A DNA stretch of 63,990 bases, counting the filler, from Aduncisulcus paluster (taxonomy: Eukaryota), in assembly GCA_024181965.1 (NCBI GenBank). It is 9 parts of 9 records of this genome, joined end to end, with 100 filler letters (N's around TTAATTAATTAA, not from the genome) between each part and the next. Parts side by side here need not be neighbours in the genome. Positions count along the whole stretch, not along the records: positions 21,475 to 41,118 come from BQXS01000045.1; 8 more parts are not named here. One strand, given 5' to 3'. Each line of letters starts with the position of its first letter. Position 1 is the stretch's first letter. Positions 10,684 through 62,574 of the stretch are shown in pieces. The position numbers and the translations under genes were made by a program. Below the pieces are notes generated by a model. The model was not told the origin of the DNA, ran no database searches, and was given only the letters and a program-made list of their open reading frames with translations.

Positions 10684-10783
10684 NNNNNNNNNNNNNNNNN
10701 NNNNNNNNNNNNNNNNNNNNNNNNNNNTTAATTAATTAANNNNNNNNNNNNNNNNNNNNNNNNNNNNNNNNNNNNNNNNNNNN
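10684..10783. other. Artificial contig linker (also at 15842-15941, 21375-21474, 41119-41218, 51373-51472, 56984-57083, 59944-60043, 62475-62574)
   Basis: Identical N44-TTAATTAATTAA-N44 six-frame-stop spacer, eight times. Confidence 0.98.
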
Positions 10784-15841: not shown

Positions 15842-15941
15842 NNNNNNNNNNNNNNNNNNNNNNNNNNNNNNNNNNNNNNNNNNNNTTAATTAATTAANNN
15901 NNNNNNNNNNNNNNNNNNNNNNNNNNNNNNNNNNNNNNNNN

Positions 15942-21374: not shown

Positions 21375-21474
21375 NNNNNNNNNNNNNNNNNNNNNNNNNN
21401 NNNNNNNNNNNNNNNNNNTTAATTAATTAANNNNNNNNNNNNNNNNNNNNNNNNNNNNNNNNNNNNNNNNNNNN

Positions 21475-23761: not shown

Positions 23762-23863
23762 NNNNNNNNNNNNNNNNNNNNACTTCTACCCCCTAGTCAT
23801 TACTTGTGTGCATTGGTTAAAAATAGATATTTTGATTGGGTCTGTTATATTTGTTTTGGCGAT

Positions 23864-25051: not shown

Positions 25052-25358
25052 TTGTAACCCATATAGAATTTGAAGAAATCTCTTGCAAACAAATGTCCAG
25101 AGTACAAACTAACTTTATTATGAATAGGATTAGCTGTTGGGAAAGTAAAAATAGATTTTGAGATGGACGATTTCGATGGTAAAACTCATTTTATCCGGTT
25201 TTAGCTGCCAGCTAATCCAGTGGATTTATGATTGTGGCCGAATAACATCACAACTTAGCATTAATCAATTAACAAATTCCAAGGAAAATAACACTTGTTT
25301 TAGCACATATCTATTGTTGTTTGAATTACACCACTACATAAAAAATAACGGATAAATT

Positions 25359-25429
25359 TGCGCCCACCGGGATTCGAACCCGGGCCGTCACGATGGAAAC
25401 GTGATATCATACCCCTAGACTATAAGCGC
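25359..25429 (-). tRNA. tRNA-Gly (anticodon TCC)
   Basis: Minus strand GCGCTTA...TGGGCGC-A acceptor stem, TCACG-TTTCCAT-CGTGA anticodon arm, CCGGG-TTCGAAT-CCCGG T arm. Confidence 0.95.
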
Positions 25430-25585
25430 CTGATAAAAATCGTTAATTTTATAATCCATAGAAATATAATTTTGAATGTTTTTCTTTTTCGCTTTTAAAA
25501 CCCATAAATAATCCTACTTTGGTTTGAACATTTATAAACGGAATTTTATTCTCACATAACATATATACAACAATTCCTAGACTTA

Positions 25586-26371
25586 TCACTTATCTTCTTC
25601 CTTCCCCTCTTCCTTTTCATCTTCTTCCAACCAAGGAAGTTTTCCTTCCTCAACAAATTTCATTAATTGCCCGAGTTTCATTTTGAGAGGTCTCAGATGC
25701 GATTCTTTTCTCTCAATTTCAGCTTTTATATCCCGAACTAGTTTCCTATTCTTTCCAATAACGCCATCAAAATATGATTTCATGTCAATTAATTCTTTTT
25801 TTCTTTCTGTTTTCAATGACTCCAATCGTATGCATTCTTTCTTTGACATTTCAAACTGATATTTTGCTTGGTCACGCTGTTTTAAACTTTCTGCAGCGCG
25901 TTTGGCGTACATTCTTATCTGATCATTGGCTTCAATGAGTCTTTTTGCAGCAACTGAACGCATATGAAGTAATTCGGCTTGCTTTTCAGAATCCTTTGAT
26001 CTTTTTTCTGCAATTTTTTTGAGTTCACGTTTCACTTTTGCATTAATATTTTCTTGCTCCAGGTTATGAGCTTTCTTTTCTGCTATTGAAAGTTTATATT
26101 CTTGTATTTTGTCTGTCAATATTCTGAGATTCCTGTCAACAGTATCTAATTCCCGTGAAAGGGCTTCATCTTCTTTCTGAAGGGCTTCTAGCCGTGCATC
26201 TTCTCCAAAAATATCAGCTCCGCTATATGTATCCATTCCAAGATCTTCACCCGCCTCTCGTTGTTTTTGGAGAATATTAAGGGCCATTCCAGCAATATCA
26301 GCACACTCTCCACCCAGAGCACCAAATTCTACGAACTTCATGGCCAAATCCTGGTCATCTTTATCCCCCAT
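25586..26371 (-). CDS. Coiled-coil protein of unknown function
   Basis: 261-aa K/E/L-rich heptad ORF. Confidence 0.8.
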   Translation of the reverse strand: MGDKDDQDLAMKFVEFGALGGECADIAGMALNILQKQREAGEDLGMDTYSGADIFGEDARLEALQKEDEALSRELDTVDRNLRILTDKIQEYKLSIAEKKAHNLEQENINAKVKRELKKIAEKRSKDSEKQAELLHMRSVAAKRLIEANDQIRMYAKRAAESLKQRDQAKYQFEMSKKECIRLESLKTERKKELIDMKSYFDGVIGKNRKLVRDIKAEIERKESHLRPLKMKLGQLMKFVEEGKLPWLEEDEKEEGKEEDK

Positions 26372-26739
26372 TGTAAAAACTTCTTTTTATCCTTTGTATA
26401 GTTAAAAGTACGTATTAAGTTGGTTAATAAATGAAATTTTGATCACTATAAAATAATAGTATCAATCCAAAACAGATTTAAAGGACAATTTTTTCGCAAA
26501 ACAGAAAATGATTTTAATAATCTCATATTATTAGCAAATATATGATATCCTTTCCATTTAAATATATTTTATGCTTTTAATTTTTTTCGCAGTTCCCCTA
26601 TTACTAACGGAAACAAATCCTTTATTTTGGGAGGATATATTCAAAGTTGACAATAAGTTTTGCCTCTATTTGCATTGATTTTGTGTTATTGATTTAGTTT
26701 ATCCTTCGTTTTTCATATTTATCGTTTCTTACTTGACTT

Positions 26740-27444
26740 ATGCCAAAGCAATCAAAGCGTGGGGGTTCTAGCAAGTTTTCCCAGAAATTGCGTTCGAAAA
26801 AGCTTGAATTTGAAACAAAAAAGAAAGATAAGGGCATTGGGCAATCCCTTAAACCTTCTCTTAATCAGAAATATAGGAGAATCATGGAGCATTCCAATCT
26901 TAAAGGAACTCTTACTGTAGATACTCAACCGACTATTTGCATGCCGTTTCTTAAAACTGGGCGTTGTCCCTTTGGAGATGCTTGTATTTATGCACATGTA
27001 CGTGATCGAGTTGTAAGTTCAGCTGACTTGTCTCGCCGAGAGCGAATTATCCAAAAAGAGCTTGATGAGATAAAAGATGCTCACAGTTGCACTAGACCTG
27101 AGTCATCCATTCTACGTTCCTCTTCATCTTCATCCTCCGCTTCTTCATCCTCTTCTTCCTCTTCAAAAATATACAAACCCCAAGATCTCCAACCCGACTC
27201 CCATATATGCCCTATCTGTAAATCATTAGTTCAAGAACCTGTGAGTGGGGATTGTGGCCATGTTTTTTGTTTTGAATGTCTTCAAGAAGGTTGTCATGGT
27301 TCTTCATCAGTTAAGTGTCGTTTGTGTTCATCTCTCATAGAAATGCCAACAATTCGCTTCTTAGCTGACAAAGATTTATGGTCGCCAACATTGAAGAGTG
27401 AAGGTGACTCTCATGACTCATCTCCGGTAAAAAAAAGAGAATAA
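26740..27444 (+). CDS. CWC24: Pre-mRNA splicing factor Cwc24/RNF113A (CCCH finger plus RING)
   Basis: DTQPTICMPFLKTGRCPFGDACIYAH matches the [26 protein letters not shown] family motif; C3HC4 RING CPIC..CGHVFCFEC..CRLC. Confidence 0.85.
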   Translation: MPKQSKRGGSSKFSQKLRSKKLEFETKKKDKGIGQSLKPSLNQKYRRIMEHSNLKGTLTVDTQPTICMPFLKTGRCPFGDACIYAHVRDRVVSSADLSRRERIIQKELDEIKDAHSCTRPESSILRSSSSSSSASSSSSSSSKIYKPQDLQPDSHICPICKSLVQEPVSGDCGHVFCFECLQEGCHGSSSVKCRLCSSLIEMPTIRFLADKDLWSPTLKSEGDSHDSSPVKKRE

Positions 27445-27750
27445 TTTTTCTATTACGATATCAGATTTGATTATTTTCTCAAAAATATTCTATTATCGGT
27501 GATTTGAAACCGATTAAAGAAATATGTTAAATTGAATGTTTATTGTAATCCTCTTCAGCTGTGGATATATATAAAATAATATTCTTTCACCTTTTCATTC
27601 TTTGAAATGCGTCATTATCCAGTAATATAAGCTATAAGAATCAAGAAAAAGACATCTAAGAATAGAAATATCCAAAACAATAGGGGATTCTTGAGAAAAT
27701 AAAATATCTAGTTTCGATTCTGGTTAGATGTTATCAAATGTCATGAATTA

Positions 27751-28346
27751 TTATTTTTCACCTTCAAATAGTGAACCAAAGTGAGTTGTCCAGGTATCTT
27801 CGGCACATTTCATTACTCTTCTATCATATTCTTCACGATCGTGTTCATATAGTCTCGCAGCTTCACAATTAGCAGGAGAAGAGCAGTTTGGCTCAGTTAA
27901 TAATGATTGAATAGCAATAAGAACGGCAACAATATCATATGATGAAACCCATTCATTTTGAAGCAAATCTAAACATATCTTTCCATCAGGATAAACTATG
28001 AAAGAAAAATGATATAAATCACATATAATAAGTAAATAAAGAAAAGAAAAAAAGTTAATCAACACAATTAATCACAATTTAGGCGAGAAATAACAATTGA
28101 TCACATACTATTTGGATGAAATACTTTGGTCACAAATTTAATCTTAGGAGGTTTCATAGGATAATCTTTTGGATATTCAATTGATAAAGGCAGGATAGCT
28201 CCGTCCCATACAGTTTTAGAAGGACCGATGATTGCTGCATGCCATTTAAACATATCTGAAGAAGGTTGGGCATATACTCCAGTCGTTTCTTTCTGGGTTT
28301 TTAAACGTTTATAATCAAGCAAAACTCTTTTTCTGCATTGAGACAT
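27751..28346 (-). CDS. RAD6: Ubiquitin-conjugating enzyme E2, Rad6/UBC2-like; two exons (28346-28109, 27995-27751), 160 aa
   Basis: Splicing a 113-nt GTATGT...CATAG intron restores HPNIYPDGKICLDLLQNEW; N-terminal RKRVLLDYKRL; C-terminal PNCSSPANCEAARLY. Confidence 0.85.
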
Positions 28347-28483
28347 TTGATTCTTTCCCAAAACATGAAATTCTGTCTTTGTTTACACCTGCCAAATAAT
28401 TTGGATTTATTCAGTTTTATTTTGTGGTTACATTTCATTTTATTTATAATTTTCAGATTTATATAATATTTTAGGTTATTAAT

Positions 28484-31400
28484 ATGGGTTTGCGACAAAT
28501 GGAAGCAAAAAACGAGCTATGGTTTGAGCAAGTTCGTTTTATATTTGTACTATGTGATAAATCAAACAAAAATACTATACCTTATTCACAATTCATGCCA
28601 TATTATCAAGCATTTAAGAAAGAAATGGAGGATCAAGGAAAGATAGCTCCTCCGCTAGAATCTCCACCCCCTTCGATCGGTTTGCTTCAAATGGAACTTA
28701 TTCTTACGGCATTTTCTCTTGATGACTTGATTTCTTTTCGGAAACTTATTAATTCTATACTTGTTGCGCAACAAGCTCTGACAACCTCTTGGGTCAGTAT
28801 CATTGAGGTTTGGCGGCGTAAAGTCCGTGGTCTTATTGGAACTCCTGTTTTTAAACATGCGTTATACTTTTTCCCACCCCAAGTCAAGAATTCCATTGAA
28901 ACCTCGATTTCCTTCAAAGATATCATACCTTCCTCGACTCAAGTATCTTCAATCCCGACTCATCCGTCCTCTTCGAAACATATCCCGACTCTTCCTTTCT
29001 CCATCCCACTGCGTAGATGTGTCCAATGGTGGGAAGGCCATTCCCTTGAGGATATCTCTTCTTGTGGTGATATGGTGAGCGCTGTCAGTGAGGTATGGAA
29101 GGTTTTATGCTCTGTCAAAGAAGTTTGTGTCGATGCCTGCGTCAGAATCCGTGATATTGGATGTTCAAGCGGTGTGGGTCGAGTTGAAGAAGTCTTTGGG
29201 AAAATTAAGGATAAATCTGAACGTTCAGCCGGATCAAATCGAAGAGAATTCGATTGGGAAGTGTGGAAACATTGGGATGGTGACATTCAGCGTGAACGTG
29301 CTATCCGTGGTCGAGGAGGAGCGTCCACCCTCACAGGGGCTGCTGGCGGTGCATTTGTCAATGATATCAGGAAAAAAGTGGGTCAATTTGAAACAATTGC
29401 CATTGACGATGGTGATCACAGCCCCTCAACTCCAACCCATCACTCGATCCCTCGTCATTCACATTCTTCTCAGCATTACTCTGATGATCTGAAAACATGC
29501 TCTAATTCATCTGAACAAACAGCTCAAGACAAAGCAGAAGAAGACAAAGCAGAAGAGGAGGAGAGAGAAGAAGAGAGGAAAGTGGGTGAGTCTTCCCCAA
29601 GTAAGCAAGATACTGTGAAGAGAGAGAAAGAAATAACGACAAGTGAGAAGCAAGAAAAAGGTAATAAGACATCCAATATTGATGCCCAAGAAGGTGAAGA
29701 AGAAGATTTCTCTGGGTTTTCTGATGGTTTTGACACTTCCTTTGGCTTTTCAAGTGGAACTCCAAGTGGAACTCCCACAAGATCAGCCACACCAAAGCCC
29801 TGTACATCTGTCCCGACAAGCCGTGCCTCTTCCTCTCTCAAAATACATAGATCAGCTCCCCAAGACAGTACTGATGAAGCCGAGGATAGTCATGTCTCAA
29901 GCACTTCTTCAAACACAAAGACACAAGACACACGAATGGTGAAAGAGAAAGAGAATGATTCAACCATCATTCGCAATCAACCTGCTGTAAAACCAATAGA
30001 TTTAGATTCAGCCAACACAGCTGCTGAAGCTGATGAAGGAGATGGAAAGGATGGTGTACACGGGCCAACTACCACCATTACAACAGGAACAGTGGATACA
30101 ATAGAGGATAGGGTTAGTGGCGATGGTGCAACTCATCCTACTCAGGGCACAAATTTAACTTCCCCTATTCCTCACCCTCCATCACTCCCCTCGTCATCGA
30201 GCCTTCGTCCTCTATTTTTATCTCACGCATCAGTGCGAGATCTTTCATCTTGTTCGAATACTCTGATCTCCCTCCTCTCCTCGCTCTTACAGACCGCCAG
30301 ACATGGTTCCGAGGAGATGCGAGAAGTGTGGGGTCTCGTTGTTTGTGGAGAGGGAATGCACATCCTTTCGTGGGCTTATGTGGTCGTCAGTGCCCTTGCT
30401 CTTGTAATCAAGAGAACTCGCGTATGGGATCTTCAACAGGGACAACACGAGCAGATAACACAGCCAGATGGTGCAACTATGGGCATTATCGGAGGTCAGG
30501 GTGACTCTATGACATTGTTTCAGACTGGTCACACAACTGGAAAGGGCCACCCACAATCAAGAGGGAGGTCCTCTTCGTCTCTCTCTTCTCTCTCGTCTTG
30601 CTCTCGCTCAACATCACCATCTATGACTGGAATGCATCAATATTCAACGACATGCTCATGTTCTTTGTGTTCTTCTCTCTTTTCTGTCTCGATCAAGCTT
30701 CATTCTCTTGCTTCAGATGTTGTATCACTTCTCACATATGCTATGAGATATCATATGCACAATAATATTGCATTAGACACGGTGCGTGAGAGTGTATGGG
30801 CTTGGGCTGGGATGGGACGATCATATGAATGGCAGACAAATGGAACTTTCTCAGAAGATTCTAAAAATAGTGGTAGGGATGTGGGAAGTGACATCGAGGG
30901 TCAAAGTACTCTTATGGAGTTCAAAGAGAAACCTTCCAGGGGTACACATAAGAAATATCGTTCCTCATCTGCCTCTCATAAAAAGCAGCTTAAACGTTCA
31001 GGTTCAGCAAGCACATTCAGTGTTCCACTCTCTCCTGCCCGTTTCTCAGCCTCTACGTTACTTGCTCAACCCTTGTCACCAATCATGACACAGCAAGAAC
31101 GAGCAAAGAAACAATCCATCCAAGCTGGTGGGTCTAAGGATCTTAGCGATGCACATTCCAGGTACATTCTCCCTCTAATTCTGACTATTCCGCTTCCCCA
31201 TGCCGATAAACTCCTTGATGGAATCATCAACGTCGAGCGGGAACGCTTGAAGATGGAAAAGAGACCGAGACGTGCCATTGCGAGAAAGAAAAGCCTTCTT
31301 GGTCGGATGGTGTATGATGGAACAAGGTTAGACTCAGATGAAGGAATCGGAGATGGTATGAAGCAGAATGAAGCAGAATCTAGACACTCAAATCAACATG

Positions 31401-34400
31401 GAAGTGGCTCTTCGTGGGAAATATTCCCATTTGTGAGTTCAATCCCATCTCTACAACCTTCTGGGCGAAGATCACGTTCCCAGAGCCCCTTCTCTCGACA
31501 TTCGTATGTTAAGCTTCCACCTGTGCATCCTTCTCTCTCTATTGCTCGCTTCACTCTCCCGTCACTAATTCATGTATTCACTCACACGACGGATAGCTAT
31601 CTACGAGAGAGCATTGGGGAGTTGATTGTTCTCTCCCACGCAGAAAGAGAAGCTGATCCTGATGCCTTGGATAATGAACCTGAGACACAAACCCCTCATG
31701 GTGAACAAACTCTGCCTATATCGCCGAGGAACAAGAAAGATACAGCGTCCCCTCAGCATGTCAATACTGATCAACTCATTGACGATGCTCCTGTCATTCC
31801 TAAACGGGGTTCTGTTTCATCTCGAAGGATAAGAGAGCAAGCAACAGATGTAATGGAACAGAGAGGAGCTGTGTTGCGGATGCTCCTTGAACTTAGTGTG
31901 GCAATGGGATCATTCTCATCGTCTGCTTCTTCTGATAAAACTAAAAATAGAAATAGACAATCGACTGCAACCGGTTCAAACCGGGAAGAGGAGGATGTGG
32001 TTGAGCATGCTCCTGGGCATCCCTTCTCACATTCCTCTGTTCAAACCCAAAGACTCATACCTGAGGTTCCTCCTCCTCCTCCCCCTCTTCCCGATGGTCT
32101 TAAGCATCAGGTTCCCAATGGAAGGAGTGTTTCTAACTTCAGAGGGAAAGTCGAAGCCAAGAAATTAGTTTCTGAAGCAACAAAAGCTAGTGAAGCTAAC
32201 CATACAACTGGTGGAGATGAGNNNNNNNNNNNNNNNNNNNNGGGATCATTCTCATCGTCTGCTTCTTCTGATAAAACTAAAAATAGAAATAGACAATCGA
32301 CTGCAACCGGTTCAAACCGGGAAGAGGAGGATGTGGTTGAGCATGCTCCTGGGCATCCCTTCTCACATTCCTCTGTTCAAACCCAAAGACTCATACCTGA
32401 GGTTCCTCCTCCTCCTCCCCCTCTTCCCGATGGTCTTAAGCATCAGGTTCCCAATGGAAGGAGTGTTTCTAACTTCAGAGGGAAAGTCGAAGCCAAGAAA
32501 TTAGTTTCTGAAGCAACAAAAGCTAGTGAAGCTAACCATACAACTGGTGGAGATGAGTTAAAGAAACTGATGCAACAAAACATTCAAGATATTGCAAAGA
32601 AAACATTCTCGTCGTGTGTGTATTTGATTAAACCGAGTGATGTTTCCCATATCTTGTGTGTTCAGAACAGTGAGATTCCATATTTTATTCATTGTAAATA
32701 TATTGCAAGGATCATTGATCTTATCGTGTCTGGCGTGAGTACGTGTCTTCGTGAGGATAGCAAAGTACAGCGATTCTCACTTGGGCATACTACTCACCCT
32801 CTGGCAAGTGCTGGATCATTCCCTGCTCAATCAGCAGCTTCAACATCGCTATCGGCGACTTCGTTGACTCGGATGCCACATCTCCACACACATACAAAGC
32901 TCCTTACCGATCTTCTTCGGCATGTTGTCCATGATTCTTCAGGGGCAAGCGCACTCTATCACATGGTCAATGCGGCTGTCTTCTTTGAAAATCATGTCAA
33001 AAGGAGAGGACTCACAGGATTTTTGTGGAGAGTTGTGTCGGCAATTCTTCCATTAGCATCGAATAATCTTCCTGATGAATCGTTGGGAGTAATTCGCCAA
33101 GCTCTAAGAAATGCATCTGTTTCTCAATCTATTTTTGGAATAAGTGTTATACATTGTGCTCGAGCTCTTGTGTGTCTCAGATCCTTGGTTTTGAGTGGGA
33201 TCCTTCAGCTTCGAGGACAATGCTCTGCATTGTATGCTGAAAGTCATGGATTCGAGCGTTCTGATATATTATATTCCATTTCTGAAGTTCTTCCTCTCTG
33301 TGTTGGTGGCAGTGCTATTGGAATACGGGAATTGAGTGAAGGAATCCGAGATTGGGCTGACTGTTCCATCATTGCTCAAGCTCTTGGTCCAGCTTCGATG
33401 GCAACAAAGTATTTGCTCCCTAAATTACAACATAACTCTTCTGGTATGCCCACAATCAGCCGCCTTGCTTCATATTCGTCACTTTCAATGTCCAGTGTGT
33501 CTTCCCCAAGGTCGAAACCGTACGTCTCTCTTGAAGAACGCCTATTGACGGAGCCTGACACCATTATTCCGTCAATTTTACTCTCATCTCTGCGATTGTT
33601 CCTTTTGTCTGCTTCCCATCTTCATTTCCACAGTAATTGTGTTCGTGTCTGTGGCACTGACGGTATTCGAATTGGTGAGAAAACTATTCGCCTTCTCAAT
33701 GTATCCGATGGTGTGTGTTGTACCTCTCGATGGGACGATTCATCAAATTCCAAGCCAGTGCCCGTTGGCATTAGTTCTGGGTGTGAGTGTTTCAACCTGT
33801 CTCCGAAGAGTGCGTGTGATCATGTGTGTGACTGTATGAGGATGTTACGACTGAGATGTGATGTCATGATGATTGAGAAAGAAAGGGCGAAGAGGAAAGG
33901 CGAGAGGAAAGATGACGAGGTGACGACATCCCAAGCATCTGAAAGGTGTGTGATTTCCGTCGATGAACTCTTTGATGATCCTATTTTTGGTCATTACATG
34001 ATAATGTTGCTCGGATTTTGTGTGTATTTGAAAGGACAACCCATTGAGACTGCCTGCAATTGGTTGAAAAGGAGATGCGTGAACATTATGGAAGAACAAG
34101 GCTGTGGACGTGGAGATGATGGGACTGTTTTTATCAGAGAACTTTCCCATTGTGTTTGCGAACAAGAATGCTCAGACTTCCACGATAACGGGGCGTTAAA
34201 TGTCACAAATATTGCTCCTTCGACAGCCGTTCACTCATTCGTGAATGATTCAAAGCTCAAACAATCATCAGAACGCTTTCCGAAGATTAAAAATTTGCTT
34301 TCTCGGTCAATTCGGCCACCCTCTCTTTCTAACACGAGTCTTGAGCATACTTATGGAAATTCCCTCGAATTGCCAGAAAAAGAGGTTATTGACGATATTA

Positions 34401-34486
34401 AGGAACCGGCTGGCCTTCTTAGATTCATTGTTTTTGGAAAGTATTGGAGACTAATTGTCAATCCAATCTCATATTTTGTCGAATAA
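28484..34486 (+). CDS. Very large Ser-rich hypothetical protein (~1888 aa after removing the gap duplication), possible N-terminal EF-hand-like motif
   Basis: Uninterrupted ORF; 336-nt offset duplication around gap 32222-32241; FVLCDKSNKNTIPYSQF. Confidence 0.75.
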   Translation: MGLRQMEAKNELWFEQVRFIFVLCDKSNKNTIPYSQFMPYYQAFKKEMEDQGKIAPPLESPPPSIGLLQMELILTAFSLDDLISFRKLINSILVAQQALTTSWVSIIEVWRRKVRGLIGTPVFKHALYFFPPQVKNSIETSISFKDIIPSSTQVSSIPTHPSSSKHIPTLPFSIPLRRCVQWWEGHSLEDISSCGDMVSAVSEVWKVLCSVKEVCVDACVRIRDIGCSSGVGRVEEVFGKIKDKSERSAGSNRREFDWEVWKHWDGDIQRERAIRGRGGASTLTGAAGGAFVNDIRKKVGQFETIAIDDGDHSPSTPTHHSIPRHSHSSQHYSDDLKTCSNSSEQTAQDKAEEDKAEEEEREEERKVGESSPSKQDTVKREKEITTSEKQEKGNKTSNIDAQEGEEEDFSGFSDGFDTSFGFSSGTPSGTPTRSATPKPCTSVPTSRASSSLKIHRSAPQDSTDEAEDSHVSSTSSNTKTQDTRMVKEKENDSTIIRNQPAVKPIDLDSANTAAEADEGDGKDGVHGPTTTITTGTVDTIEDRVSGDGATHPTQGTNLTSPIPHPPSLPSSSSLRPLFLSHASVRDLSSCSNTLISLLSSLLQTARHGSEEMREVWGLVVCGEGMHILSWAYVVVSALALVIKRTRVWDLQQGQHEQITQPDGATMGIIGGQGDSMTLFQTGHTTGKGHPQSRGRSSSSLSSLSSCSRSTSPSMTGMHQYSTTCSCSLCSSLFSVSIKLHSLASDVVSLLTYAMRYHMHNNIALDTVRESVWAWAGMGRSYEWQTNGTFSEDSKNSGRDVGSDIEGQSTLMEFKEKPSRGTHKKYRSSSASHKKQLKRSGSASTFSVPLSPARFSASTLLAQPLSPIMTQQERAKKQSIQAGGSKDLSDAHSRYILPLILTIPLPHADKLLDGIINVERERLKMEKRPRRAIARKKSLLGRMVYDGTRLDSDEGIGDGMKQNEAESRHSNQHGSGSSWEIFPFVSSIPSLQPSGRRSRSQSPFSRHSYVKLPPVHPSLSIARFTLPSLIHVFTHTTDSYLRESIGELIVLSHAEREADPDALDNEPETQTPHGEQTLPISPRNKKDTASPQHVNTDQLIDDAPVIPKRGSVSSRRIREQATDVMEQRGAVLRMLLELSVAMGSFSSSASSDKTKNRNRQSTATGSNREEEDVVEHAPGHPFSHSSVQTQRLIPEVPPPPPPLPDGLKHQVPNGRSVSNFRGKVEAKKLVSEATKASEANHTTGGDEXXXXXXXGSFSSSASSDKTKNRNRQSTATGSNREEEDVVEHAPGHPFSHSSVQTQRLIPEVPPPPPPLPDGLKHQVPNGRSVSNFRGKVEAKKLVSEATKASEANHTTGGDELKKLMQQNIQDIAKKTFSSCVYLIKPSDVSHILCVQNSEIPYFIHCKYIARIIDLIVSGVSTCLREDSKVQRFSLGHTTHPLASAGSFPAQSAASTSLSATSLTRMPHLHTHTKLLTDLLRHVVHDSSGASALYHMVNAAVFFENHVKRRGLTGFLWRVVSAILPLASNNLPDESLGVIRQALRNASVSQSIFGISVIHCARALVCLRSLVLSGILQLRGQCSALYAESHGFERSDILYSISEVLPLCVGGSAIGIRELSEGIRDWADCSIIAQALGPASMATKYLLPKLQHNSSGMPTISRLASYSSLSMSSVSSPRSKPYVSLEERLLTEPDTIIPSILLSSLRLFLLSASHLHFHSNCVRVCGTDGIRIGEKTIRLLNVSDGVCCTSRWDDSSNSKPVPVGISSGCECFNLSPKSACDHVCDCMRMLRLRCDVMMIEKERAKRKGERKDDEVTTSQASERCVISVDELFDDPIFGHYMIMLLGFCVYLKGQPIETACNWLKRRCVNIMEEQGCGRGDDGTVFIRELSHCVCEQECSDFHDNGALNVTNIAPSTAVHSFVNDSKLKQSSERFPKIKNLLSRSIRPPSLSNTSLEHTYGNSLELPEKEVIDDIKEPAGLLRFIVFGKYWRLIVNPISYFVE

Positions 34487-35326
34487 TGCTTGATTTTGAG
34501 CATAGTAATATCAGAATCTTGGCCCATAAATATCTTATTATCAATATCATAATCTCAATATTTCCAATTTATGTTTGATCAAAGGAAGAAGTTGTATTGT
34601 GAATTAAATATTAAAATTTGTATGAGCTTTAATTATATTTTCTCCCTTTCAAATTTACGAGTTTTATCAATAAATAAACAATCATATTCATTAAAGCTTC
34701 ACCGACCTATAATTGTGTGAATTTCAGCCTGAAAGATCTCTGAGAGATCCAAAAAAGGTATATTTGGATTTAAGCATTTTTTTCAGAAAACGATGGTGGT
34801 ACAATAGGTAATTATCCACTTTAAAGAAAAATATTCCATTATAATGATATTAACGGCATAATATCAGGAGATTCATTATTTCAAGGATATCTCAATCAAT
34901 TCTCGATTATTTTAAAAACACATCAGGAAATAAATACAAAATAATTATTATAAAAAAGAATATATTACTATAAATATAATCAGTTCATTATTCAGGAGTC
35001 GAAACGATGACAAAAAAAATCATTTCGTCAAAATGTCAAATACGCGAGTTCGTTTAAATATGTTTAAGAAAGTGATCAAAAAATTCCCTACCTCATTTAT
35101 TATTATCGACTACCATTTTAATAGTGTTGTTTCTACGTAGATCCCGAAGTCAACCTCGGTCAGTTGTTTGACAAATATTTTAAAGCAATTTAAAATTCAA
35201 AAATAATACCAATGAAAAGCCTAAAATATAAAATAATTTCTAGAATAATCTGAAATTGCTTTATTAAAAACACTCCATTCGACAATTTTCTTTCAAGATT
35301 TTTCCTGCCAATTCAAACCTAAAACA

Positions 35327-37263
35327 ATGGAAACATTATCCTACTCTGAATCTATTGATTATTTAATGTCAATGTATGATAAATATGTTGAATTTTGTAA
35401 AGAGAAGTCGGCTGAAATCGAAGCAATTCCAGCGAAAACTAGAGCTCTTATTCGTGCCTTATCAAGTGAACAACGTCCTTACCTAACTCATGTTGTCCAA
35501 TTAAGGAAGGAACTTGCGACTTCAAACAAACGGGAGCAGTTTAAACATCGTGCCGAGATTGCCCTAAAGGCTGGAGGAAACCCTTTCTTATTCCCCACAG
35601 AAATGCTTGCTGGACCTGACATGTTGTCTGATTCAGGTTCTTCCGCCATGGATGCCTCTCAATTCGGAAAGCTGATGATCGGAGATGAGTCTTATGGATC
35701 AAACAAGGGTTGGTTCATATGGAATCAGACCATCAAGGACATCTTCCATCCCAAATTTGGAAATCCTTTTGTCAATCAATCAGATAACGAAGAGCTCAAT
35801 TCCAAGTATTTCAACAAGAAATCCTTCAATTTCCTCTACCATCAAGGCCGTGCTGCCGAGAACTCGCTCTTTAGGAACATTCTTCAAACAATTGTTTTGC
35901 AAGGAGGAAAGGAAGCAGAGGGTGACTGGTACGCGTGTTTCAACACAGCCTTTGACACCACGGGTGGCCATATCCTGAGCCTTTCTCGGACTGAAATGCC
36001 TGATGCTGAGGGAAATCCCGTGAAAGTTGGCCTCAAATTGACCGAGTTTAACAATCCAAAGATCAGGGATGGAACATACAAGAAAGACGATCGATTCCTC
36101 GGAAACTGTGACTTCGATGCTGCCAAGAAGTTCATTGAGGAAAATCACGCTCGGATTGCCATTTTCTATATGACTATCACGAATAATAAGGGTGGTGGTG
36201 CTCCCGTCTCTCTTGATCACATCAGAAAGGTGAGCTCTCTTTGCCACAAATATGACATCCCTTTCTTCTTTGACGCCTGCAGATTCGCTGAAAATGCCTG
36301 GTATGTCCAACGTGACGAGTATCCAGACAAGTCAATACAGGAGATCACTCTCGAAACCTTCGATTGTTGCGACGGATTCCACTNNNNNNNNNNNNNNNNN
36401 NNNTCAGAAAGGTGAGCTCTCTTTGCCACAAATATGACATCCCTTTCTTCTTTGACGCCTGCAGATTCGCTGAAAATGCCTGGTATGTCCAACGTGACGA
36501 GTATCCAGACAAGTCAATACAGGAGATCACTCTCGAAACCTTCGATTGTTGCGACGGATTCCACTCTTCTCTGAAAAAAGATGGGCTTTGCAACATGGGT
36601 GGATGTTTATGCATCGCCCCTGAGGGTGTTTTCGCCAAGAAATACTCGAGCGAGAAGATTGGTGAGCCTTGCATCATTCAGATGCTCACAGACTCTATCA
36701 TTCTGACTGAGGGACACTTTACATACGGAGGTCTTACAGGACGTGATATCTTGGCTCTTTCTGAGGGATTGCGCATTATTGTCCGTCAAAGTTACCTTGA
36801 TGGTCGTATTGGACAGGTTATTCGACTTGGAAATCTCCTCGCTGACCTTGATGTGCCAGTGATTCAACCAGTGGGAGGTTCCGCTGTATATGTTGATATG
36901 GATAAGTTTATGGGGGATCTGGAACCTCATAAAATAGGAACAAGTAAGCGAGGAAAATTTTATGGGTGCGCTGTTGTGATGATTATGCTGGCCTTTGGAT
37001 TCAGAGCGTGTGAACTCGGTGCCCAAGCTTTCTCAAGTCCTTATGGAGTTGCCCCTTACGAGAAACCCGAGGATGTTTCTGGAAATTTCGTGAGACTTGC
37101 TATTCCAAGACATATTTATGCTGATTGTGATTTATATAACATGGCTTTGGTACTTTCATTCTTGAAAGAGCATAGAGACCTCATAAAACATGTTATTCCC
37201 GACGAAGGATGTCGTCGCCTCTCCTTGCACCATTTCAAAACAACTTTTAAGGTAGCCAAGTAA
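35327..37263 (+). CDS. tnaA: PLP-dependent beta-eliminating lyase, tryptophanase-like (~584 aa)
   Basis: AGGNPFL, DMLSDSGSSAM, GDESY, HQGRAAE, FDTTGGH, DACRFAENA, SLKKD (PLP Lys), TYGGL, RLAIPR, LHHF. The two ORFs join in frame after removing the 162-nt duplicate plus gap 36384-36403. Confidence 0.85.
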
Positions 37264-37648
37264 TTACACTTTAATTTATAATATAACTCAAAACGAGTCG
37301 CAAATTTTTCCTATTTTTCATTCAGTTTGATCATCAAAAGTGGTAATCACTAAATGTTTTTGAATGCTTTGAGATTTTATGTATCTAATTGCTATTTGGC
37401 TTTAATATGATTATATCTTTGGTTTTATCATTTTTTTATGTTTTTTTTTTATTGCTAATACATGATAAGAGAAAAAAGAAGTGTCTAGCGTGATAGCAGA
37501 GCTAATAAATTTCTTTTCATGATTGAATATTTATTATTTGGAATTTTGGAGACAATATCAATACTAATTTTCAAAATTAATGTCATGAATTGACAAATAG
37601 AACTCTGGGTTATAATAGTCTATTTTTTTCTCGATTCTGAAACCAAGA

Positions 37649-38723
37649 ATGAAAGACCCAATCAAAGTTGTTGTTACAGGTGCTGCAGGACGAATTGGTA
37701 TGTCCTTCAAATTTGATAAATTGGTTTTTGCTAATATAAGAATATCTAATTGTTTCTTTTTTGTTTGTCTTGCTCATTATTTCCCAAGCCAACAATATTT
37801 TACCGCGAATCTGTCATGGAGATGCTTTTGGGTCCAACCAACCTGTGATTCTGTCCCTTTTGGATATTACACCTGCTTTGCCAGTGTTAAAGGGAATTGT
37901 TATGGAACTTGAAGATTGTTGCTTCCCTTTAATCACCTCTATCGAGACTTCAGACGATCCCAAGGTTGCTCTCAAGGATGCTGACTTTGCTTTGATGCTT
38001 GCTTCTTACCCTTTTAGACCTGGTATGGAAAGGGTTGATCTATTGATCAAAAACAAGGCTATCTTCAAACAACAAGGTATTGCCTTGGATACAGTCGCCA
38101 AGAAGACTGTCAAGGTGCTTGTTGTTGGAAATCCTGCCAACACAAACTGTCTTGTTCTTTCTGAGCATGCTCCTTCCATTCCTAAGGAGAATTTCTGTGC
38201 TTTGACTCGTCTTGACCATAACCGTGCCGTTTCCCTGTTGGCTGCCCGTGCTGGTTGTACCGTTCGGGATATTGATGGTCCTGTGTGTATATTTGGAAAC
38301 CACTCGTCTACGATGGCCGTTTACGCCCATTCTGCAACTGTGAAGGGCAAAAAGATCCAGGACGTAGTTGAGAAGGACTTCTTTTCACGTGAATTCGAAC
38401 CTCTTGTCCAAGTTCGTGGTGGTGCCATCATCAAGGCAAAAGGAACTCCTTCAGTTTTCTCCGCTGCTGCTGCCATCATTGATTGTATTCACGATTGGAT
38501 GGTTGGATCTGAGGGAAGAATTGTATCAATGGCTGTTGCTTCGTCCGGCAAATATGGAATCCCCGAAGGAGTGTTCTTCTCCGTTCCTTGTAAATGTGAG
38601 GATGGTAAGTATGAAGTTGTTGACTTGGATATAGATCCCTCTTACAAGGAAGAATTCGAGGCAAAGCTCCAAAAATCTTACCAAGAACTCATTTCTGAAG
38701 CTAAATTAGCTGAAATATATTGA
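37649..38723 (+). CDS. Cytosolic MDH-family 2-hydroxyacid dehydrogenase; two exons (37649-37697, 37789-38723), 327 aa; substrate uncertain
   Basis: Splicing a 91-nt GTATGT...AAG intron gives VVVTGAAGRIANNILPRI; VGNPANTN, LTRLDHNRA, GNHSST. Confidence 0.9.
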
Positions 38724-39125
38724 AAAAAAAGATCTTCATTAGTAGTATTCTACAATTTATCTTTTCTTTCTGTTTAAAAAATCGATCGTCGATCATCGTC
38801 TATGATAGATGATCTATCCTAAATTTTTAGTTCAAAATAAGTTGTTGAAACTATTTTGTACAATTTAATAAATTCAATACATTCATGAAAATATTTCAGA
38901 AATAAGTTATTTCTAAAAATTCATTTTTTTTTTTTTTCTCAGAAGAAAGGATTGAACTTTGAATCCGGGTGTATTTGTCAAGTAAATTGGTATTTTATAT
39001 TCAAATAACAATGAAGGATTCTTTACTAGATTGATAATATCGCGATAACGAAATAGAGAGAGAGAGGTCCATATAAACTGTTGTTATATAATAAATTATT
39101 GAAATTCACTCCAGATATGAGTATT

Positions 39126-39548
39126 CTATTCGCAAAAAAATGAAATAAAGTCGGTTTCAACTTTGGATTCATCGGGAATTGGAAATTGAAGAAAATGGTC
39201 GATTACAACCTTGGCAACTTCAGATTTAACTTCTTTGTGGACCTTCAATCCAAATGTCTTTTTATATTTCCTTAATGCTGTTATTGGAAGTTGACCAATT
39301 GCGGTCTCAATAATTCTTGATGACTTTTCTAATCGTTCTGAAGGATGAGATTCAAGCAGAGGAGAATCCTCATTTTCATCCTTAACCTGTTCGGTTGGAC
39401 TAGATGGCTTTTTAACAATTTCTGGAGGTACAATTGGGGCTATTGGTGGCTTTCCGGAGTCTATATCTATTTCTGTTGATAATGGTTGTTCTACTTGTCC
39501 TTCAACGACTTGAAGGGTATCTTTTGAGTCTATAGGAATTGTTTCCAT
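39126..39548 (-). CDS. SAP30-like protein (Sin3-binding domain)
   Basis: QLPITALRKYKKTFGL...VAKVVIDHF..PIPDESKVETDFI parallels SAP30 QLQVNTLRRYKRHFKL...LVEIVGCHF..IPVNEKDTLTYFI. Confidence 0.7.
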   Translation of the reverse strand: METIPIDSKDTLQVVEGQVEQPLSTEIDIDSGKPPIAPIVPPEIVKKPSSPTEQVKDENEDSPLLESHPSERLEKSSRIIETAIGQLPITALRKYKKTFGLKVHKEVKSEVAKVVIDHFLQFPIPDESKVETDFISFFCE

Positions 39549-39866
39549 TTGTTCATTGAGACAATGCGAAAAAAAAACACACACTTTCATTTCCAAGAAA
39601 AATAGAATGAGCTTCCGTTGAGTAAACTTGAAGAATTTGCTTCTGCAATATATATAATATACAATTCGTAATAATATTGTTTATATTAATCATCTTTGGG
39701 CAACCAAAATAAAAATGCCATTTAGCGGGTCAATTTTTTAAAAAAGAAATATTAAGGAAATATTTTCGAGTATTTAACATAGAAACAATTAAAAAACAAA
39801 GGGCTATTTGGATATAAATGTTTGCAATTAACTGATACTTTCAATCATCACAATTCTTTTCGAATA

Positions 39867-40683
39867 ATGTATTGTCCAGGTATGATTTATTCAGTTTTAT
39901 AATATTTTGATGAATTATATTGAAATTTTCTTATCTGTTATGTTGAATTCTTAATGCACACTAGTCTGTTCTCTACCATTCGAGTATTGTCCCTACAATC
40001 CAAAAGGAACTGCCACATCTTTCAAAAAATGTGAAAATTATATCAAATCTCATAATGAAGAGATGTGGAAACGGATTTGGGGAAGTCCAGTTGAGATTGC
40101 TGAAGAAATTGTAGATGTCGTGGTAGATAAATCTGAGAAGCCGATTGAACCAATAGTGGAGCCTGAAGAGACAAAAGAAACTGTTGAAAAGGATGAATCT
40201 CATGAAAGTGAGAAAGAGGAGGAAGAAAAGGATGAGGGTAAAGAAGACGAGGAAGAAGAGGTTAAAACCGTATCTTTCTCAGGTGTAACGATCGGAGAAA
40301 ACAAGGAAAAACATATTATTACCGATAAAAAGGGTGACTTGATGCACATTACTCTGGTTCGTTGTGAGATTCGTCCGCGGAAATGGGTGACTCAAGTCTT
40401 CGGTCTTGAGAAACATACTTACATCGATATGAAGAAAGTATCACAGGTTTTGAGGAAGAAATGTGCCACAGGAGCTTCTGTATGCAGTGATACTAGAACT
40501 GGATTCACAATCATTGAAGTGCAAGGAGATGTGGTGCCAATTGTGAAGAATACTTTGATCTCTGACTTTAAAATAGAGGCAAAATTAGTCGTTATTGGAA
40601 AGGATATGAAAAAGAAAGGAAGAAGCAAGAAAGCTAGCAAGAGAGAAGCCCAGAAACAAAGTATTACAAAAAAGAAGAAATGA
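39867..40683 (+). CDS. DENR: Density-regulated protein DENR/Tma22 (Zn-binding N-terminus plus SUI1 domain); exons 39867-39879 and 39965-40683, 243 aa
   Basis: Splicing an 85-nt GTATGA...CACTAG intron gives MYCPVCSLPFEYC; SUI1 motifs RKWVTQVFGL, KKCATGASV, IEVQGD. Confidence 0.88.
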
Positions 40684-40730
40684 TTCAGTATTCAAAATAA
40701 AAATTTTATTTTATCGATCCGTTCCTATAA

Positions 40731-41118
40731 ATAAACGAGTTAAATGCTGGTAAATGATAAAAACATGTTTTATTTTCATTTCCATGCCATGGTGTTTATT
40801 CTCGATATCTCAGGATTTTTGGGACCCCTCAGGACTCCATATAGTTCCATTTCACGTGGTAAGAACATTTATGAACGATTTCATTGCTATTCAATAACAT
40901 GGATATATTTCCATTTCATTTCTATCCTTATCCTTGCCTTTCTGTTCATTTTCACTTGCTTTTGCTTACAATCAAAAATATCAAGAACTCGGAATACGAT
41001 GGTATACATATGTTTGTATACTGCTACGAATCTAATCCCCTGATGCTTCATGGAACACGACATTTCCCCGCAGTCAAATCCAACTCCAAATCCAAATCCA
41101 AATCCAACTACAATGCCA
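40731..41118. repeat. Dispersed non-coding repeat, copy 4 (solo, truncated, no family gene), ending in (TCCAAH)n
   Basis: Matches ~10310-10655; starts ~47 bp after the DENR stop. Confidence 0.88.
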
Positions 41119-41218
41119 NNNNNNNNNNNNNNNNNNNNNNNNNNNNNNNNNNNNNNNNNNNNTTAATTAATTAANNNNNNNNNNNNNNNNNNNNNNNNNN
41201 NNNNNNNNNNNNNNNNNN

Positions 41219-42549: not shown

Positions 42550-45213
42550 CTATTTCCCCTTTCCTTCTCCAATAAAATCCTTAGCAGCGAGAGTGAGTGC
42601 ATCAGTCGTATCACAAGCGTTATACACAATTGGCATGCATCGCAAATCTTTGGTTCCCTTGAGAACAGCTTCGATTTGTGAGAATTTAGATCCTAAAGCA
42701 TCGTCCAATGCATCAATACCTACTTCTTCGTCAGATATATGACTTAATTGAAGTGATAGAGATGAATCTGAGAGTGTTCTTGCACGTAGATACCTCTGAT
42801 CAAGACCTTCTTTCGTCTCAGATAGTGTGGAAATACACGATGCCAACTTAAGATCTTGTTCTTGATATGAGTCAAGTACACTCTCTACCGCTTTGTCTTG
42901 CATCATATCAAGGTATCTCCGGGCCTCCGAGAAGGACTTGGAAAGGGATGAGAGGGCTTCCCGACATTGTAAAGTATTCTCCTCTCGCTTTGCATTAGAC
43001 ACCTCAAGGACCTCCATGAGTTCATTGCAGTGCTTCTTAATATCAGTGCTAAGATGGGATATTCTTTCTTCGATGGAAGAGACAGAAGAAGCCGATGGTT
43101 TCATAAGGGAAATAAGCTTAGATTTATCGAACAGAGCCTGCGAAGATCCGTGGGAAGGCCGTCCAATTGTTCTATCAGAACCTGAGACCTTCACGATAAT
43201 TGCATCTGGTCTTTCACTTCTCTTGGGTGCCTTAAATGTAGAATCTGCATCCTTTTTGTGTGAATGTGTTCCATCTTGATTTGGTTTATCCTTACCCTGT
43301 GTTATCTTATCTTCTCTTCTCGATTCCTCTACTTTCTCCTCTTCTTCTTCACTTTCCCATCCATTCTTTCCCCTTTCTCTCCCACATTTCTCCTCAGAAA
43401 TATCATAACTTCTCCCTCCACCAATAATATGCCCTCCCGAGGACTTTCTGTCGTGATCAAATACACATCGCAGACAGCACCTCCGCTTGTGAACATCATC
43501 CCAGAAAAGAGTGGATTTCCCGTGATCAACGCATATCCACCGTTTTAAGTAAAGGAATTGTTCAAGGGGGATCAATGAATGGTTCTGTGGAATGCTTTTG
43601 ACATCATGGGCGATTCTTAACTCACGTTCTTTGAGCTGGACAGCAGCTTTCCCGCGAACTTTCGACTCTGGAAGAGGGAATTGGATTATTGGAGATACTG
43701 GCGTTGACGCTGACTGTAAGAGAGTGAAAACTGATAATGCAGCCACCTTTCCAAATTCATTCTGGGCGAGTCCAATGATATCATTTCCGATCTGTCCGAA
43801 TGGAACTTTGTCAAGCGATTTTTCGCGGAGAAGAGAGAGCACAAATGGAGAAGGGCAGGTGCATGTTGTTGATTCTGATAATGAAACCAAAGGAATACAT
43901 GGAGATTGGAATTGAGGGATAGAATCGGAGAGCATAGTTGGAGTTGGTTCCAATTCACCGCGTTTCTTTGCTTTCTTTTTTTGTTTAGTCAATTGTTCCT
44001 TCTCTTTTTCCACATTAAATCGGAAATCCTCCCTTTGTTTAAGGGTATGTAACAGACGACCCTTCCCTCCCCAACAACATAGAGAACGTTCAGAACAAAA
44101 TAGTTTGAGACATCGCAAACATATCATTGTAGCTGATTTTGAGCAGACAGAGCATCCAAATTCCCATAATGGTTTCTGTCCGAATGGAACTTTGTCAAGC
44201 GATTTTTCGCGGAGAAGAGAGAGCACAAATGGAGAAGGGCAGGTGCATGTTGTTGATTCTGATAATGAAACCAAAGGAATACATGGAGATTGGAATTGAG
44301 GGATAGAATCGGAGAGCATAGTTGGAGTTGGTTCCAATTCACCGCGTTTCTTTGCTTTCTTTTTTTGTTTAGTCAATTGTTCCTTCTCTTTTTCCACATT
44401 AAATCGGAAATCCTCCCTTTGTTTAAGGGTATGTAACAGACGACCCTTCCCTCCCCAACAACATAGAGAACGTTCAGAACAAAATAGTTTGAGACATCGC
44501 AAACATATCATTGTAGCTGATTTTGAGCAGACAGAGCATCCAAATTCCCATAATGGTTGAGATGAGGGTATTTTTGGAAGTGGTTGAGAAAGAAGTTTCG
44601 GATATATTGGCAATGGAGGAATCCTTTTTGATTTGAGGGAAATCAACGGACTATCTTCTGATTTTGACTCCATAGGAGAAAGAGATGACATATTTGAGCC
44701 TGTTGATAGGAGGGATGTAGAATTTTTTGGTGAAATGGAGTCGAATTCAGACTTTACAGTTCCGTCATCACAAGTTAACGTCGCATGTTGGAGAGAAGAG
44801 GAGGATGTACACAACATTGCTCCATCTTTGCGTTTGAGTGACCCATAAACATAAGGAATAGCGGCACAGTTCTCTTTCAAATCAACAAAATGTTTTGAAT
44901 GGCATAAGGTTGTCTTACTACATTTGGGACATGAATAATACGTGTATTTCATTGAATCAGGATTCGTTGATGAATCTGATTCATACGATTTACGATGATA
45001 TTTCGCACATTGTGGGCAAATAGCGCAGCCACACTCCAATATTCTAGTCAATTATGTATTAGGAAAAGCTGAGGTATTTTAAAAAACGATAGATAGGAAA
45101 TGATAAAAAACATACAAACTCCCCAAGTTATCACAAGCAATACACTTTAATGGATGATGTGGGAAGGCCAACCGACCTTCAGTTGTAAATATACTAATAT
45201 GATGCGTATTCAT
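42550..45213 (-). CDS. TRIM-like RING / B-box / coiled-coil protein; exons 45213-45116 and 45043-42550
   Basis: Splicing a 72-nt GTATGT...GACTAG intron completes the RING (CIAC...LECGCAICPQC...CPKC); B-box-like CSVC..CLRC..C and CVDH...CCLRCVFDH; C-terminal coiled coil. Confidence 0.75.
43791..44558. repeat. Exact in-frame 384-bp tandem duplication
   Basis: 43791-44174 equals 44175-44558, with no N gap. Confidence 0.9.
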
Positions 45214-51372: not shown

Positions 51373-51472
51373 NNNNNNNNNNNNNNNNNNNNNNNNNNNN
51401 NNNNNNNNNNNNNNNNTTAATTAATTAANNNNNNNNNNNNNNNNNNNNNNNNNNNNNNNNNNNNNNNNNNNN

Positions 51473-56983: not shown

Positions 56984-57083
56984 NNNNNNNNNNNNNNNNN
57001 NNNNNNNNNNNNNNNNNNNNNNNNNNNTTAATTAATTAANNNNNNNNNNNNNNNNNNNNNNNNNNNNNNNNNNNNNNNNNNNN

Positions 57084-59943: not shown

Positions 59944-60043
59944 NNNNNNNNNNNNNNNNNNNNNNNNNNNNNNNNNNNNNNNNNNNNTTAATTAATTAAN
60001 NNNNNNNNNNNNNNNNNNNNNNNNNNNNNNNNNNNNNNNNNNN

Positions 60044-62474: not shown

Positions 62475-62574
62475 NNNNNNNNNNNNNNNNNNNNNNNNNN
62501 NNNNNNNNNNNNNNNNNNTTAATTAATTAANNNNNNNNNNNNNNNNNNNNNNNNNNNNNNNNNNNNNNNNNNNN

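Follow-up and report, generated by a model that had tools for sequence, protein, structure and literature searches.

A phenylalanine-bearing malate dehydrogenase paralogue of Aduncisulcus paluster, a candidate lineage-specific L-2-hydroxyacid dehydrogenase

The window, that is the whole stretch of DNA analysed here (63,990 nucleotides, filler included), consists of nine separate contigs from Aduncisulcus paluster, which is a microaerophilic, free-living fornicate (Metamonada), joined together. On one of these, the piece at 21475-41118 (19,644 bp), lies a gene of two exons on the + strand whose 327-residue product has the fold of a cytosolic-type malate dehydrogenase (MDH) and carries a phenylalanine, Phe92, in place of the arginine that makes MDHs specific for oxaloacetate. 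Exon 1 (37649-37697, + strand) runs from the ATG through MKDPIKVVVTGAAGRI to the first base of codon 17 and includes the NAD-binding GxGxxG region; the sequence as read, the tblastn match of the public protein P0002 and the N-terminus of P0002 agree on it. The 91-nucleotide intron (37698-37788, + strand; GTATGT...AG, phase 1) was placed by reading the sequence, and the G|CC splice gives Ala17 as in P0002. Exon 2 (37789-38723, + strand) encodes residues 17-327 and ends with the TGA stop codon at 38721-38723, in agreement with the reading frame, tblastn, the Pfam matches and an AlphaFold2 model. The splice as read by hand gives exactly P0002, which is recorded as 'Malate dehydrogenase [Aduncisulcus paluster]'. 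Contigs of a second library, X2, cover 37936-38695 and so begin 3' of the intron, where the splice rests on the sequence and P0002. X2 was made from the sample that also gave the probable source run, not from a second isolate, and is putatively RNA.

Phe92 is part of the mobile substrate-specificity loop, which spans Ala88 to Arg98 (38001-38033, + strand) and reads ASYPFRPGMER (A88, S89, Y90, P91, F92, R93, P94, G95, M96, E97 and R98), with Arg98 equivalent to Arg109 of lactate dehydrogenase (LDH) according to the alignments and column counts. The TTT codon of Phe92 is at 38013-38015 (+ strand) and replaces the oxaloacetate-specific arginine, which is Arg102 in LDH numbering and Arg91 in cytosolic-MDH numbering. 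In HMMER alignments with the best sequence matches in the PDB, the MDHs of Burkholderia and Thermus (E 1e-84), Phe92 faces the arginine of 'gaRPRxxGMER'. The second substrate loop, Lys234 to Ala242 (38439-38465, + strand), reads KGTPSVFSA (K234, G235, T236, P237, S238, V239, F240, S241 and A242) where the consensus from the column counts is RGxSSAASA. An earlier, sequence-only reading had given the coordinates and both loop strings, which proved exact on direct reading. Its TTT codon was also confirmed by a 119-nucleotide X2 contig (word depth 4,386) that covers 37967-38085 with 0 differences; because this contig reads identically, the Phe92 codon is not an assembly error.

In the LDH/MDH superfamily hydride is transferred from NADH to C2 of the substrate, the acid is His195 in a pair with Asp168, the C1 carboxylate is bound by Arg171 and Arg109 arrives on the closing loop. 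To follow these positions we used an alignment of 270 rows, made up of 119 sequences from a word-indexed search, the best 150 of 5,559 HMMER matches and P0002, in which 250 rows bear the specificity Arg. The catalytic LDHNR and GNH motifs had been described as intact, and both are read directly in the sequence. The first, TRLDHNR, contains Asp159-His-Asn-Arg162 (38214-38225, + strand), where Asp159 and Arg162 are the equivalents of Asp168 and the carboxylate-binding Arg171 and are each found in 250 of the 250 Arg-bearing rows. His188, the equivalent of His195, is encoded by CAC at 38301-38303 (+ strand) within GNHS, as seen from the sequence and the column counts. Asn131, equivalent to Asn140, lies in GNPANTN (38130-38132, + strand) in an invariant column. 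Together with Arg98 these residues are all kept, and the columns are invariant or nearly so.

Both domains of the family are present, with Pfam scores of 101.9 bits for Ldh_1_N (PF00056; cut-off 27) and 96.6 bits for Ldh_1_C (PF02866; cut-off 22.6). The protein passes the NCBIfam model TIGR01759 (MalateDH-SF1, the cytosolic-type subfamily; 391.4 bits against a cut-off of 345.65) and the MDH model NF003916 (382.6 against 271), and fails the eukaryotic cytosolic MDH equivalog TIGR01758 (344.5 against 470.4), as does the Arg-bearing paralogue described below (411.8). The AlphaFold2 model, for which 34 sequences were aligned, reaches a predicted local distance difference test score (pLDDT) of 94.8 and a predicted template modelling score (pTM) of 0.93, and superposes with a template modelling score (TM) of 0.94 on Thermus MDH and of 0.91 on the LDH of Trichomonas vaginalis, with which it shares 36% identity. 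Sequence and fold place the Phe92 protein in the cytosolic-type (group I) MDH subfamily. Arg102, the defining functional feature of an MDH (EC 1.1.1.37), is by alignment replaced, as Phe92 stands there. Membership of the MDH family with loss of the specificity Arg, as the sequence-only reading had it, is thus borne out by the HMMER alignments, the family models and the column counts, in which Arg occupies the position in 376 of 402 sequences.

Two further paralogues, P0003 and P0004, were found in A. paluster, neither of them encoded in the window as judged by tblastn. P0003 had been overlooked by the sequence-only reading. It has 326 residues, is 68% identical to P0002 and bears Tyr at the specificity site followed by Gln93 (loop ASCPYQPGMMR); its second loop, KGSPSVFSA, is remodelled as in P0002. 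P0004 is 62% identical to P0002 over the MDH part and keeps the Arg in canonical loops (GAFPRKAGMVR and ARGLSSACSAA). A separate Arg-bearing MDH in the same genome, a point that the sequence-only reading had raised, is thereby present among the public proteins of the species, and by its loops P0004 is the ordinary, true MDH of A. paluster, which would carry on MDH function. The annotated P0004 also has a C-terminal tail of ~220 residues, rich in Lys, Arg and Glu and seen in no other homologue, which could reflect either a genuine extension or the fusion of two gene models.

All trees omit both loops (columns 86-100 and 230-244), and alignments and trees alike were made without the aromatic L-2-hydroxyacid dehydrogenase (AHADH) of Trypanosoma cruzi. 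With FastTree on 159 rows the three A. paluster paralogues form one clade (support 100), and within it the Phe copy pairs with the Tyr copy (99). Using IQ-TREE with the posterior mean site frequency (PMSF) mixture model on 46 rows, the same two groups received values in the Shimodaira-Hasegawa-like approximate likelihood ratio test (SH-aLRT) of 96 and 99 in a quick run, and ultrafast bootstrap (UFBoot)/SH-aLRT values of 98/94 and 100/99 in a careful run whose bootstrap had not fully settled. The nearest outgroups of the three paralogues are one sequence (94/84) and one Anaeramoeba MDH (78/81). From the common node the branch lengths are 0.27 to the Arg copy, 0.27+0.21 (0.48) to the Phe copy and 0.27+0.30 (0.57) to the Tyr copy, and the best foreign matches are 56-61% identical to P0004 and 49-54% identical to P0002. 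Because the Phe and Tyr copies are sisters inside the clade of three, the order of events given by the trees is duplication of an MDH in the Aduncisulcus lineage, loss of the Arg and remodelling of both loops in one copy, and then a second duplication of that copy.

The trichomonad-LDH-like proteins P0233 and P0168 pair elsewhere in the tree (97/93), and the best solved relatives of P0233 are a reconstructed trichomonad MDH and T. vaginalis LDH. Forcing the Phe and Tyr copies into a clade with these two costs 52.7 log-likelihood units, with an approximately unbiased (AU) test p of 0.022 for a group that was picked once the tree was known. The placement by FastTree and IQ-TREE, together with the AU test of the joint clade, agrees with the earlier proposal that the Arg was lost independently of the trichomonad LDHs, and the Phe92 copy probably arose independently of the known LDH cases.

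We then looked at how often the Arg is replaced and which positions change with it. Across the 270 rows position 92 is Arg in 250, Leu in 6, Gln in 4, His in 2 and Phe, Tyr, Asn, Gly, Ser, Asp, Val and Met in 1 each. With 132 sequences added, giving the 402 mentioned above, Phe occurs twice and Tyr once, and the only proteins with an aromatic residue there are P0002, P0003 and the parabasalid-like P0272. A word search with residues 78-120 alone matched only P0002 itself (1 of 3 candidates) and did not extend the count of Phe or Tyr variants. P0272, with Phe, and the likewise parabasalid-like P0168, with Leu, both come from public read assemblies and are 90% identical to one another (MLASAPFLPG and MLASAPLLPG), a pair which suggests that Phe and Leu could be interchangeable in such enzymes. 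The sequence-only reading had overlooked that proteins of the subfamily without the Arg are no great rarity in sequence databases (20 of the 270 rows). Since these 20 rows need at least 17 state changes on the 159-row tree, loss of the Arg is, on this reconstruction, recurrent in the cytosolic-MDH subfamily, and the 20 rows point to many uncharacterised changes of specificity.

That several other loop positions changed together had also been overlooked. Among the 250 Arg-bearing rows Gly88 is found in 242, Arg234 in 217, Ser237 in 235 and Ala239 in 220, and at these positions P0002 has Ala, Lys, Pro and Val. In 249 Arg-bearing homologues, 85 columns show conservation of 85% or more, and of these P0002 keeps 72, P0003 70 and P0004 78. 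Nine conserved columns (18, 61, 86, 88, 92, 214, 234, 237 and 239) are changed in both P0002 and P0003 but not in P0004, and six of the nine (86, 88, 92, 234, 237 and 239) lie in the two substrate loops, as do 11 among the remaining 76 conserved columns (Fisher p 0.0016). In raw counts over the 270 rows, 'AS' at 88-89 is found in 8 of 20 non-Arg rows and 3 of 250 Arg rows, the eight having it in place of 'GA' or 'GS' two residues ahead of the loop Pro, while a residue other than Ser at 237 is found in 14 of 20 and 15 of 250 respectively. Position 237 may correspond to LDH residue 246, described as a steric determinant; this match, made through LDH motifs and the trichomonad 'RGFTS' string, is unsure, alternative registers differing by one or two residues, and was not used as evidence. 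As the catalytic columns are kept, the conserved columns are mostly retained and the fold is predicted with a pLDDT of 94.8 and a TM of 0.94, the Phe92 copy is unlike a decaying gene.

Taken together, these observations lead us to propose, with a probability of roughly 0.6, that P0002 is a lineage-specific, NAD-dependent L-2-hydroxyacid dehydrogenase. It would keep oxaloacetate out by charge, and its substrates would be 2-oxoacids without a charged side chain, pyruvate being the most probable. The Phe92 and Tyr92 copies, sister paralogues derived from duplication of a cytosolic-type MDH, have probably ceased to work as MDHs. Fold and NAD-binding motif are retained, as is the machinery of hydride transfer (the His188/Asp159 pair, Arg162 for the C1 carboxylate, Arg98 on the mobile loop and Asn131). 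The facing loop has become more hydrophobic through S237P, A239V, A240F and R234K, and with Pro237, Val239 and Phe240 opposite, Phe92 would offer neither a charge nor a hydrogen-bond partner to a second carboxylate. Oxaloacetate would then be rejected, its second carboxylate being buried against apolar side chains without a balancing charge, and uncharged 2-oxoacids would be accepted and reduced with NADH to L-2-hydroxyacids. It would seem most likely that pyruvate is the physiological substrate, the enzyme acting as an L-lactate dehydrogenase and providing the anaerobe with a sink for NADH, and larger apolar or aromatic 2-oxoacids could be a side or even the main activity. Such a mode of exclusion is in keeping with published work in which residue 102 is described as discriminating mainly by charge balance (Boucher 2014, PMC4109310). 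The same paper states that all known MDHs have Arg102 and that in the convergent LDHs this position is taken by Gln, Lys (where Trp107f performs its task), Gly or Leu, Leu being the residue of the trichomonad LDHs.

A number of points weigh against this proposal. P0002 passes the two NCBIfam MDH models TIGR01759 and NF003916, whereas it scores far under the cut-offs of the trichomonad ('protist') LDH model TIGR01756 (221.2 against 486.25) and of the canonical L-LDH model TIGR01771 (64.9 against 303.55), its residue 102 being Phe, not Gln. According to PMC4109310 the Arg102Trp substitution in a reconstructed apicomplexan MDH all but abolished both activities, and so a bulky aromatic at 102 can cripple an MDH. 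The backbone of the tree is poorly resolved, and the AU test carries the post hoc choice of group already mentioned. When phylogenetically independent pairs were compared, non-Arg rows showed no significant association with Ala88 (median p 1) or with non-Ser237 (median p 0.125), in a comparison that is underpowered with 6 pairs on supported branches. We found no description of the Aduncisulcus MDH-like paralogues in the literature as far as it was searched, and the main text of the genome announcement (PMC9933649) is silent on them.

Gene order is meaningful solely inside each piece of the window. The pieces are separated by spacers of 44 N, TTAATTAATTAA and 44 N (at 10684-10783, 15842-15941, 21375-21474, 41119-41218, 51373-51472, 56984-57083, 59944-60043 and 62475-62574), TTAATTAATTAA being a six-frame stop spacer, and to treat gene order across the whole window as informative was rejected because several contigs are joined in this way. 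On the same contig and strand as the MDH-like gene, 386 bp upstream of it, lies a tryptophanase-family gene (beta-eliminating lyase; 35327-37263, + strand) with an N-terminal extension of ~70 residues; each half of the gene scores ~190 bits on NF009709. It is split by a gap of 20 N at 36384-36403 whose flanks repeat ~160 bp; this is a scaffolding-overlap artefact, and the gene is probably intact. Tryptophanase is described as producing pyruvate, indole and ammonium, and the adjacency, which may be due to chance, fits an LDH as well as an aromatic enzyme. The same artefact is seen further upstream, where a Ser-rich open reading frame of 2,000 codons (28484-34486, + strand) contains a run of 20 N (32222-32241) flanked by a duplicate of ~100 residues. 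Downstream, 40063-40683 (+ strand) encodes a protein of 206 residues in which an acidic N-terminal half is followed by a SUI1 translation-initiation domain (Pfam, 51.3 bits). On the next piece of the window an open reading frame of 833 codons (42550-45051, - strand) has an exact internal tandem duplication of ~125 residues (PLWEFGCSVCSKSATMICLRCLKLFC to KVPFGQ), which may be real or an assembly artefact.

Other explanations of the Phe92 protein can be set against these data. It could instead serve mainly as an L-2-hydroxyacid dehydrogenase of aromatic or broadly hydrophobic specificity, the Phe and Tyr paralogues covering different substrates such as phenylpyruvate, 4-hydroxyphenylpyruvate, indolepyruvate and branched or sulphur-containing 2-oxoacids, formed by transamination of the amino acids of ingested bacteria. 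We consider this unlikely, though it deserves attention, as there is precedent within the cytosolic-MDH clade, where T. cruzi AHADH is described as having no oxaloacetate activity and FrsC as a specific phenylpyruvate reductase. The apicomplexan LDHs with an aromatic specificity residue are, outside Plasmodium, reported to have high activity with phenylpyruvate, mostly about equal to that with pyruvate. The divergence of the two non-Arg paralogues (68% identity; Phe with Arg93 against Tyr with Gln93) also suggests a division of labour, and the gene 386 bp upstream belongs to a family of aromatic amino-acid catabolism. The known aromatic enzymes, however, are described as having a small residue at 102 (Ala, or Ser with a five-residue insertion), while P0002 has a bulky residue and lacks an insertion, and its facing loop gains further bulk through A239V and A240F. 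This weakens a direct analogy with AHADH, although an aromatic residue 102 might still stack. As to the neighbouring gene, tryptophanase makes pyruvate and indole and no aromatic ketoacid, and adjacency of genes is weak evidence in a eukaryote. A more speculative form of the same idea, to which we give still less credence, is that Phe or Tyr at 102 is a new specificity solution in the LDH/MDH superfamily, the two paralogues being a matched pair of aromatic or apolar L-2-hydroxyacid dehydrogenases in which the ring of residue 102 stacks on the substrate side chain, and that in this free-living anaerobe the pair forms an amino-acid fermentation module with the tryptophanase. Indolepyruvate or phenylpyruvate might then be the substrate of one copy, and 4-hydroxyphenylpyruvate or pyruvate that of its partner.

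That P0002 has stayed a malate dehydrogenase, with Arg93 or another basic residue binding the C4 carboxylate instead, would be consistent with its annotation, with its scores on the two NCBIfam MDH models and with the position of Arg93 directly after Phe92. Position 93 varies freely, however, in the 250 rows of true MDHs (Gly 91, Ser 61, Lys 55, Thr 14 and Arg 10), and pig-type enzymes with 'PRR' still require the first Arg. T. vaginalis LDH has Lys at the equivalent of position 93 and is nevertheless an LDH, and the sister paralogue P0003 has Gln93. It is because of this variation, and of the Lys and Gln in these two proteins, that Arg93 is unlikely to replace the lost Arg. As the near-invariant Ser is also gone from the second loop, and the canonical P0004 is already there as an MDH, we judge a retained MDH function to be very improbable. 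Nor does a catalytically impaired or non-enzymatic paralogue, whether a pseudoenzyme or a copy heading for loss, appear at all probable. The near loss of activity of the ancestral MDH on Arg102Trp substitution, as reported, would favour it, as would a branch about 2x that of the Arg paralogue. On the other hand, both non-Arg copies keep every catalytic residue despite having diverged to 68% identity, the changes in conserved columns cluster in the substrate loops and are not scattered, the reading frame is intact, the fold is confidently predicted and, over the coding region, word depth in the second library, which may be RNA, reaches the thousands. Reduction of uncharged 2-oxoacids, with pyruvate foremost, is the reading we retain.

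LDH and MDH form a textbook system for the change of enzyme specificity. If P0002 does act in this way, the locus would be a further natural replicate of that change, in which one organism holds an Arg-bearing copy of the parental type together with two derived copies that differ in their aromatic residue at 102 and have gained no loop insertion. Three such close paralogues make models of epistasis and of 'charge versus size' specificity directly testable by residue swaps. The public label 'malate dehydrogenase' is probably wrong for two of the three, P0002 and P0003, and metabolic reconstructions of fornicates may miss an NADH-reoxidising lactate (or hydroxyacid) branch. With non-Arg relatives of cytosolic MDH scattered in environmental data (20 of 270), the switch may be much commoner than the studied handful of cases. 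In a 2023 account LDH is counted as having arisen from MDH once canonically and four more times independently (Plasmodium, Cryptosporidium, Trichomonas and Selenomonas; PMC10583557). The MDH-to-LDH switch as a phenomenon is known, and the locus adds to it a clean natural system of three paralogues.

The precedents cited in the sequence-only reading agree with the sources: the PDB title of 4uul is 'TvLDH L91R', Leu is given for the trichomonad LDHs in PMC4109310 and Ala102 for T. cruzi AHADH in PMC9299796. T. cruzi AHADH (EC 1.1.1.337) resembles P0002 in falling within the clade of cytosolic-like MDHs and in having lost the Arg without an insertion and, as described, it lacks oxaloacetate activity, which the A102R substitution restores (PMC9299796). 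It differs in its small Ala102, which makes room for a ring, and in coming from a different eukaryotic supergroup; the comparison is by description, as no match was found among the gathered proteins to a short N-terminal motif translated from a primer in PMC6749089. FrsC, the phenylpyruvate reductase of Chromobacterium vaccinii, is likewise described as of cytosolic-like MDH descent and as having lost the use of malate and oxaloacetate, whereas its five-residue loop insertion, Ser102, preference for NADPH and role in bacterial secondary metabolism set it apart from P0002.

P0272 has Phe at the aligned position (MLASAPFLPGM against MLASYPFRPGM in P0002). The best solved relative of P0168 and P0272, both uncharacterised, is however the reconstructed trichomonad MDH, their second loop reads ARGGGSVVSA and P0168 groups with P0233. 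T. vaginalis LDH itself (PDB 4uum, 4uun and 5a1t; L91R mutant 4uul) derives, like P0002, from a duplicated cytosolic-type MDH in a metamonad, and in both the Arg was replaced by an apolar residue, no loop insertion occurred and a basic residue follows the specificity site. From the reconstructed trichomonad MDH to T. vaginalis LDH, VGSFPRKPGMER became VASMPLKPGQVR (VGSFPRKPG to VASMPLKPG) and ARGASSAAS became HRGFTSAAS. The two enzymes thus share a change of Gly to Ala two residues ahead of the loop Pro ('AS-x-P-X'), and the Ser at position 237 is replaced in both, by Thr in T. vaginalis LDH and by Pro in P0002. They differ in that T. vaginalis LDH has Leu, not Phe or Tyr, shares 36% identity with P0002, has a separate origin and is an enzyme of measured function, P0002 being known from sequence. 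In the apicomplexan LDHs (Plasmodium, Toxoplasma and Eimeria) Trp107f is described as filling the space of Arg102 and excluding oxaloacetate, and for a specificity residue that is aromatic they are the closest parallel in mechanism. They belong, however, to the LDH-like MDH branch, of alpha-proteobacterial origin, and their Trp came with a loop insertion, residue 102 being a Lys that is expelled from the site, whereas P0002 carries its aromatic residue at 102 itself, in a loop of unchanged length. Judged by the failed model cut-off and the separate origin, P0002 is a member of neither the trichomonad nor the apicomplexan LDHs. By analogy it resembles the trichomonad solution, an apolar residue at 102 without an insertion, combined with the apicomplexan use of an aromatic side chain in that place.

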